Positions 24,164-24,254 of a DNA stretch of 64,000 nt are shown here, piece after piece. Position 1 is the stretch's first letter; every line of letters starts with the position of its first letter. The stretch lies in NCBI GenBank assembly GCA_024683775.1, contig GCA_024683775.1_4106.1; one strand, written 5' to 3'. The notes beneath the pieces are model-generated. The model did not search any database and was not told the DNA's origin. It worked only from the letters and a program-made list of their open reading frames with translations. The stretch comes from a phage. The translations under genes and the position numbers were made by a program.

Positions 24164-24254
24164 GGAAGGGTGGCAGAGCGGTTGATTGCACTCGCCTACT
24201 AAGCGAGCAAGTGTTAGAAATAACGCTTCGTGGGTTCAAATCCCACCTCTTTCG
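24164..24254 (+). tRNA. class II (Ser-type) tRNA with the unusual anticodon ACT
   Basis: Acceptor GGAAGGG/CTCTTTC, with G-U pairs. Anticodon arm CTCGC-CTACTAA-GCGAG. 7-bp variable arm with a GAAA loop. T-arm GTGGG-TTCAAAT-CCCAC. Confidence 0.65.

Follow-up and report, generated by a model that had tools for sequence, protein, structure and literature searches.

Does a phage gene that looks like a serine tRNA, and that encodes A at the first anticodon position (A34), specify a working tRNA, and which codons would such a tRNA read? The question is raised by a 64,000-nt stretch of phage DNA (contig GCA_024683775.1_4106.1; hereafter the window), for which the preliminary description had claimed a class II tRNA of the Ser type whose anticodon is ACU. 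ARAGORN called tRNA-Ser, anticodon (act), at 24164-24255, and Rfam RF00005 matched 24164-24254 end to end (model positions 1-71, 49.9 bits, E = 1.1e-07). The match lies above the gathering score of 29 over the full model, which places the gene in the tRNA family, and the claimed type and anticodon were borne out by both calls. A re-fold by covariance model had been proposed as a check: in the RF00005 alignment CUACUAA is kept as the 7-nt anticodon loop, and the variable region carries a 20-nt insertion. RNAfold returned the same cloverleaf, with a variable arm of 8 predicted pairs; the GAAA loop described earlier stood, and the arm had been counted there at 7 bp.

An alternative fold with a GCT or TGA anticodon is excluded. 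Rfam, ARAGORN and RNAfold share one register, and no other register gives these anticodons because a perfect 5-bp stem encloses the 7-nt loop (CUCGCCUACUAAGCGAG, the 17-nt anticodon stem-loop). A sequencing error or a strain-specific mutation is also excluded, with the 92 nt 100% identical in 18 independent phage deposits. The tRNA-Ser(ACU) gene of the window is an intact, genuine tRNA gene. Its parts and the neighboring features are collected in Table 1.

Table 1. Features of the tRNA-Ser(ACU) gene, its surroundings and related loci (window coordinates unless a locus is named).
Feature	Position	Strand	Remarks
tRNA-Ser(ACU) gene	24164-24254	+	class II; ARAGORN, Rfam RF00005, RNAfold cloverleaf
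Acceptor 5' strand GGAAGGG	24164-24170	+	read from sequence
Anticodon stem CTCGC with GCGAG	24191-24195 with 24203-24207	+	read from sequence
Anticodon loop CTACTAA (C32-U33-A34-C35-U36-A37-A38)	24196-24202	+	read from sequence
Anticodon ACT	24198-24200	+	A34 is 24198
Variable region, 22 nt	24208-24229	+	predicted stem AAGUGUUA/UAACGCUU, GAAA loop
T arm GTGGG-TTCAAAT-CCCAC	24230-24246	+	read from sequence
Acceptor 3' strand CTCTTTC	24247-24253	+	read from sequence
Discriminator G73	24254	+	followed by CAAAAATC
Putative sigma-70-type promoter	24125-24153	+	predicted, read from sequence
Weak -35 TGAACT	24125-24130	+	17-nt spacer to -10
Extended -10 TGATATAAT	24145-24153	+	ends 10 nt before the tRNA 5' end
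Two tRNA(CAT) genes	24263-24430	+	downstream gaps of 8 nt and 5 nt
tRNA(CAT), 90 nt	24263-24352	+	inserted variable arm, encoded CCA; Rfam 50.3 bits
tRNA(CAT) without acceptor stem	24358-24430	+	Rfam model positions 8-63 only; fold z-score +0.4
ORF, 565 aa	24439-26136	-	no Pfam match; abutted by the tRNA(CAT) without acceptor stem
NUMOD4 + HNH_3 homing-type endonuclease gene	23545-24102	+	directly upstream of the tRNA cassette
Second HNH-type homing endonuclease gene	26734-27276	+	in the tRNA region; weak NUMOD3 + HNH
tRNA-Ser(UGA), second serine tRNA of the phage	21649-21738	+	ARAGORN, Rfam
tRNA(GTT), 85 nt	26585-26669	+	Asn anticodon, long variable arm GUCA-GAAA-UGAC
Sharanji gp491	L013 2457-2936	-	outside the window
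Ser(ACT) loci of the Polynucleobacter/Burkholderiaceae group			Polynucleobacter: L252, L253, L262, L265, L269, L270, L273, L275; related MAGs: L254, L272, L274

The long variable arm is the class II hallmark used by SerRS, and G73 is a serine identity element, as opposed to A73 in tRNA-Leu and tRNA-Tyr. The list of SerRS substrate elements also holds C11:G24 in the D stem and the G2:C71 acceptor pair. The window gene has the long variable arm (22 nt) and G73; C11:G24 is present in its D arm (GCAG-AGCGGTTGA-TTGC), but position 2:71 is G.U, where the copy in phage EJP2 and 84% of the homologues described below have G:C. It is one of two wobble pairs (G2.U71 and G6.U67) in the acceptor stem, and its presence in place of the usual G2:C71 counts against the functional reading favored below. 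The CCA end is not encoded, because CAAAAATC comes directly after G73.

Asteriusvirus jumbo phages of E. coli (121Q, PBECO4, G17, JNE01 and others) match the window at 92-99% identity, and on this basis we assign the window to an Asteriusvirus-type jumbo coliphage of the 121Q/PBECO4 group. In 18 GenBank records, which represent 17 phages from several countries, the 92-nt gene recurs with 100% identity, compared with about 90-99% identity for the flanking DNA of those relatives. GenBank already annotates tRNA-Ser(act) in 121Q, G17, slurp01, Sharanji and other records (in SHEFM2K as tRNAscan-SE Ser(ACT), score 63.3), and as an annotation the gene is not new. A literature search returned no paper discussing the phage Ser(ACT) gene, and a census paper on virus tRNAs has no discussion of anticodons.

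The corresponding position holds tRNA-Ser(GCT) in Turkey5, CRJP21, PBECO4 and ∼20 other Asteriusvirus records, and also in the Klebsiella Alcyoneusvirus group (RaK2, K64-1). Upstream of both the Ser(ACT) and the Ser(GCT) genes at this slot lies the motif GTACTGATATAAT, an extended -10, which precedes other tRNA cassettes in the relatives as well. A simple G34A point mutation of the sister-phage Ser(GCT) was considered and rejected: every stem differs, the bodies are ∼70% identical, and the nearest non-ACT bodies are Ser(TGA) more often than Ser(GCT). The two genes are not simply interchangeable, because five Asteriusvirus phages (JP4, ph0011, Turkey3, WPEC3 and EJP2) keep both. They lie ∼900 bp apart with an HNH endonuclease gene between them in JP4 and ph0011, and with the same spacing, judged by coordinates, in Turkey3 and WPEC3. 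EJP2 carries the GCT gene and a diverged ACT gene in which the anticodon arm is exactly kept. In its acceptor stem the changes are compensatory (G1:C72 to A1:U72, G7:C66 to U7:A66 and G2.U71 to G2:C71); its variable arm is different, and CCA is encoded. At the level of sequence, these changes indicate selection on a working tRNA that retains A34.

The gene opens a small tRNA cassette in a mosaic region. ARAGORN found seven tRNA genes in the window, none of them a Ser(GCT) gene. The element at 24125-24153 was not listed by a consensus promoter scan because its -35 is weak; the -35 position reads TTGACT in JP4 and ph0011. The Ser(ACT) gene and the two downstream tRNA(CAT) genes probably share one transcript. 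The first of these tRNA(CAT) genes has the variable arm GUCA-CAGUUAA-UGAC, an atypical D loop without GG, the T loop UUAGAAU and A73; related copies in Erwinia and Xanthomonas jumbo phages are annotated tRNA-Met. It carries C4:G69, C5:G68 and G27.U43, which we take to be the TilS determinants of E. coli tRNA-Ile2, and it may be a tRNA-Ile2 that reads AUA, a codon with a frequency of 14.6 per 1000 in the window. The second is probably a remnant left by an insertion; the same layout, with the adjoining minus-strand ORF, is present in JNE01. The endonuclease gene upstream of the cassette encodes a product that matches Pfam PF07463 (43 bits) and PF13392 (25.4 bits); its equivalent is the gene between Ser(GCT) and Ser(ACT) in JP4 and ph0011, and many ACT-only relatives (121Q, G17 and JNE01 among them) have no HNH gene at that place. 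Among close relatives the tRNA set of the region is itself mosaic, with Arg(TCT), Leu(TAA), a second Thr(TGT) and Gly(TCC) variably present. The tRNA(GTT) of the window shares its variable-arm stem sequence with the first tRNA(CAT) gene, and Asn(GTT) in 121Q, slurp01 and SHEFM2K has a normal length of 75 nt.

We scanned IMG/VR with a pattern that joins a Ser-type D arm to the CTACTAA loop (TGGNNGAGNGGNTNANNNCNNNNNNCTACTAA, 18 specified bases). The scan yielded 113 viral contigs, and ARAGORN calls a tRNA-Ser(act) in 112 of them; with genome hits added there were 85 distinct Ser(ACT) sequences, a few of them from giant-virus MAGs. One IMG isolate contig carrying Ser(ACT) had no match among GenBank phages. 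In the 82 distinct sequences that could be parsed by anchors, the paired share was 99.1% in the acceptor stem, 96.6% in the anticodon stem, 99.0% in the T stem and 99.6% in the D stem, and several pair types occur at most stem positions, which amounts to covariation. G1:C72 is present in 100%, G2:C71 in 84%, A3:U70 in 80%, C11:G24 in 83% and G73 in 71 of the 82 (87%); the variable region spans 13-23 nt, and 55 sequences encode CCA. From this pairing and conservation, the viral Ser(ACT) genes are judged to be working serine-type tRNAs of many lineages.

Across 185,579 bacterial and archaeal species, with one genome taken per species, the same pattern was hit 25 times, and 17 of these hits are tRNAs. 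Some of the tRNAs sit in phage-like tRNA clusters on short MAG contigs. The remaining ones belong to the Polynucleobacter/Burkholderiaceae group, often clustered in the order Ser(ACT)-Gly(CCC)-Thr(CGT), with up to four copies in one assembly of a freshwater member; they may mark a cellular lineage that has A34 in the Ser/Arg split box, or else be copies borne by islands or prophages.

A matching GCT scan of IMG/VR gave at least 120 loci, and the ratio of ACT to GCT was hence taken from an unbiased sample of 120 viral loci selected on Ser(TGA), in which Ser(GCT) was counted 20 times and Ser(ACT) 3 times. Over 2,350 viral tRNAs, the remaining NNY boxes with two codons held 463 G34 and 8 A34 calls, so that A34 is enriched in the Ser AGY box (Fisher p = 0.011). 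ACT and GCT seldom occur at one locus, with GCT in 1 of 112 ACT-selected loci and ACT in 0 of 120 among the GCT matches listed. The A34 tally was made from raw calls in IMG/VR loci L018-L395 (the 2,350 tRNAs); it includes occasional Asp(ATC), Phe(AAA), His(ATG) and Cys(ACA) calls, and for four-codon boxes, where A34 is no rarity in these viral sets, it gives Thr(AGT) 9 vs. GGT 17, Leu(AAG) 3 vs. GAG 7 and Ser(AGA) 3 vs. GGA 10. Taken as a set of related sequences, tRNA-Ser(ACU) is a widespread, virus-enriched class, and our literature search did not find a description of it.

In the reading that we favor, with a probability of about 0.6, the window gene specifies a functional phage elongator tRNA-Ser, its genomically encoded A34 probably unmodified, that is specific for AGU and stands in the slot of the sister-phage Ser(GCU). 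Transcription would start at the extended -10 promoter of the gene itself and run through the two tRNA(CAT) genes. Maturation would proceed by an RNase P cut, 3' trimming and addition of CCA by a CCA-adding enzyme, which is required because CCA is not encoded. We found neither a CCA-adding enzyme gene nor a deaminase gene in the window; relatives encode the former (Sharanji gp419, NF008137, 273.8 bits). Host SerRS, which takes no account of the anticodon, would recognize the long variable arm, G73 and C11:G24 and charge the product with serine. During translation ACU would form a Watson-Crick pair with AGU, the commonest serine codon of this AT-rich phage. The host reads AGU only by G:U wobble, through its single-copy tRNA-Ser(GCU), to which AGC would be left.

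Codon usage in the window is consistent with this role. At 34.6% GC, its ORFs (16,925 codons) contain 358 AGT (21.3 per 1000, 31% of the Ser codons) and 80 AGC; AGT is followed by TCA (342) and TCT (236), which Ser(UGA) matches, and with Ser(ACU) the three most used serine codons are covered. The host tRNA-Ser(GCU) gene, serV, is present in a single copy in all 5,426 complete E. coli genomes, and its anticodon loop, CUGCUAA, differs from that of the window tRNA at position 34 only. No copy of the phage tRNA was found when it was sought in E. coli genomes.

That unmodified A34 would read AGU only had been stated in the preliminary description, and it agrees with published in vivo data. For an orthogonal ACU tRNA expressed in E. 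coli, with a loop otherwise identical to that of tRNA-Arg2, reading reached 9.4% at AGU and 0.36% at AGG and fell below detection at AGC and AGA; there was no inosine signal (PMC11066159). Overexpression of an E. coli Ser-tRNA(ACU) improved growth, and several other ANN tRNAs of two-codon boxes were deleterious (bioRxiv 10.64898/2026.05.15.725136). We infer, with good support, that decoding by the window tRNA is AGU-specific. In the host, A34 is confined to tRNA-Arg(ACG), as the earlier account had it, and the phage Ser-type tRNA departs from this.

Host TadA, or an unrecognized phage enzyme, might instead deaminate A34 to inosine, and a Ser(ICU) tRNA would read AGU, AGC and some AGA at the price of some Ser-for-Arg misincorporation. 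We regard this as unlikely. The preliminary description had noted a partial match to the TadA substrate: the loop equals that of tRNA-Arg(ACG) at 6 of 7 positions and U33-A34-C35 is kept, but position 36 is U rather than G, and the U33-A34-C35-G36 motif is broken to UACU. All 15 native E. coli TadA sites lie in UACG, and among the new editing sites that arise on TadA overexpression 25% are one base off that motif (PMC5630033). Apparent A-to-I conversion has been described on a native-backbone Phe-tRNA(AAA) in E. coli (bioRxiv 10.64898/2026.05.15.725136), and given this report TadA specificity may depend on the tRNA body. Against this stands the ACU tRNA with the Arg2-identical loop, which acquired neither inosine nor AGC/AGA reading (PMC11066159).

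No phage enzyme for the conversion was found. With E. coli TadA as the tblastn query, Asteriusvirus gave no hit at E below 1e-3 and the window gave nothing; annotated tadA genes were matched at 99.4% in that search, which validates the query. For gp491 of phage Sharanji, both the published paper and the deposited record give the name "tRNA-specific adenosine deaminase". We rejected gp491 as a TadA, since it scores 30 bits over 31 residues against the TadA model (cutoff 150). Its scores of 78 bits to dCMP_cyt_deam_1, 71 bits to ComEB and 77 bits to an anti-phage dCTP deaminase model identify it, by profile match, as a dCMP-deaminase/ComEB-type protein, and the annotation is probably wrong. The deamination proposal, with its reading of AGC and AGA, was the weaker part of the earlier account, the native TadA sites all being UACG and the related phages having yielded no TadA.

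Codon usage was compared between ACT-bearing and GCT-bearing viral loci, the latter being the GCT matches listed. The two sets have equal GC (0.38) and an equal AGT share of AGY codons (0.72), and codon usage was rejected as the reason for A over G at position 34. Codon demand thus explains the carriage of an AGY tRNA, but not the choice of A34, because GC and AGT share are equal. Arginine codons differ. With ORFs called naively, phylogeny crudely controlled and, for the cluster-level values, loci collapsed to tRNA-sequence clusters, AGA stands at 13.6 per 1000 in the ACT loci vs. 21.1 in the GCT matches listed (p = 2e-8; cluster-level p = 0.003), and AGG at 2.7 vs. 4.4 (p = 1e-5; cluster-level p = 0.0009). 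Relative to the same GCT matches listed, total Arg is equal, the AGA share of Arg is lower by 0.13 ± 0.019 with GC3 as covariate, and CGT is commoner at equal GC3; the most different of the 59 synonymous codons are CGT (p = 0.00035), AGG, ATT and AGA.

The lower use of AGA is what a Ser(ICU) tRNA would favor, but the depletion of AGG is no weaker, and inosine forms no pair with G. The window itself contains 139 AGA codons and no tRNA-Arg(UCU) gene, which also argues against inosine. The AGR deficit might have been left by a Ser(A/I-CU) tRNA that misreads AGR. A host-lineage effect would account for it equally well, because Proteobacteria classically use AGA, AGG and ATA rarely and ATA follows the same trend. 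We put forward only tentatively, as a possible but doubtful generalization, that tRNA-Ser(ACU) forms an isoacceptor class of its own, under positive selection and enriched in viruses, that breaks the no-A34 rule and is coupled to an AGR-to-CGN shift in Arg codons; either measurable AGR misreading reshapes phage codon usage, or the tRNA becomes established only where AGR is rare.

The choice of A34 might also reflect evasion of defense: an anticodon nuclease of the host or a prophage would cleave tRNA-Ser(GCU), and a phage copy with G34A would resist it and still serve the dominant AGU codon. Such an origin would fit the finding that ACT carriers and GCT carriers (matches listed) are not told apart by codon usage, the retention of both genes in some phages, and the position of the cassette within a mosaic region rich in homing endonucleases. 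Phage tRNAs that escape PrrC, PARIS, Retron-Eco7 and VapC by anticodon-loop changes are documented, but these changes spare the anticodon and A34 alters decoding; the papers that document such escape name no nuclease against tRNA-Ser(GCU) (PMC10264068; PMC13056530), none is known to attack this tRNA, and in mycobacteriophages Ser(gct) is cited as an isoacceptor spared by nucleases (PMC10264068). No defense or anti-defense gene was identified beside the tRNA, and we consider evasion quite improbable. That the gene is a neutral or decaying passenger spread with the adjoining HNH homing endonuclease, with no part in translation, is very improbable: the NUMOD4/HNH gene directly upstream, the mosaic presence among close relatives, the neighboring tRNA(CAT) without acceptor stem, the missing CCA and the two acceptor G.U pairs would suit it, but the 92 nt show zero substitutions in 18 records while the flanks vary, the diverged EJP2 copy has compensatory changes, the 82 homologues have 97-99.6% paired stems with conserved Ser identity positions, and the ACT-only 121Q, G17 and JNE01 lack the upstream HNH gene.

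These data bear on two statements of a review, that A34 is universally missing from the Ser/Arg split box and that phage tRNAs avoid the same "prohibited" anticodons as bacteria (PMC8007984); both are contradicted by the window gene. Because the same type occurs in >100 other viral genomes, the gene represents a real viral tRNA that recurs, rather than an error: Ser(ACU) is conserved in a culturable group of E. coli phages, is present on >100 viral contigs, and is nearly absent from 185,579 prokaryotic species. Why nearly all cellular genomes avoid unmodified A34 is now actively studied with engineered E. coli (bioRxiv 10.64898/2026.05.15.725136). If the coupling of ACU to AGR usage is true, these phages would be a natural experiment on the cellular avoidance of A-starting anticodons; natural ACT-only, GCT-only and both-gene isolates exist, and the host is fully tractable. 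Codon-adaptation indices and tRNA-based host prediction that apply standard wobble rules will mis-score such phages.

Among known systems, tRNA-Ser(GCU) (E. coli serV and the PBECO4, Turkey5 and RaK2 copies) shares with the window tRNA the class II body, G73, C11:G24 and the loop C32-U33-N34-C35-U36-A37-A38; the phage copies also share the slot and the promoter motif, and serve the same AGY serine box. The window tRNA differs in having A34 in place of G34, and would read AGU by Watson-Crick pairing and probably not AGC. The TadA substrate tRNA-Arg(ACG), which carries I34, likewise encodes A34 in the genome. Its E. coli anticodon arm, which we take to be CUCGG-CUACGAA-CCGAG, is nearly the same as CUCGC-CUACUAA-GCGAG in the window tRNA. 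The one loop difference is U36 in place of G36; the window tRNA also has a class II body, and because the AGN box is split, inosine would miscode there.

The M. jannaschii orthogonal tRNA(ACU) (PMC11066159) and the native-gene-derived Ser-tRNA(ACU) (bioRxiv 10.64898/2026.05.15.725136) resemble the window tRNA in anticodon, loop and host species. These engineered tRNAs decode AGU only, acquire no inosine, and are tolerated by E. coli or benefit its growth; they are laboratory constructs, whereas the window tRNA is natural, conserved and virus-borne. Natural unmodified A34 is known from Mycoplasma tRNA-Thr(AGU) (cited in PMC11066159), where it is also encoded without a dedicated deaminase in AT-rich genomes. 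The Thr box has four codons and extended wobble is harmless there, whereas ACU belongs to a split Ser/Arg box. Finally, the nuclease-evading T5 tRNA-Lys and tRNA-Tyr and the mycobacteriophage tRNAs are, like the window tRNA, phage isoacceptors that differ from the host counterpart in the anticodon loop; in those tRNAs the anticodon is unchanged, whereas in the window tRNA the anticodon itself is altered.
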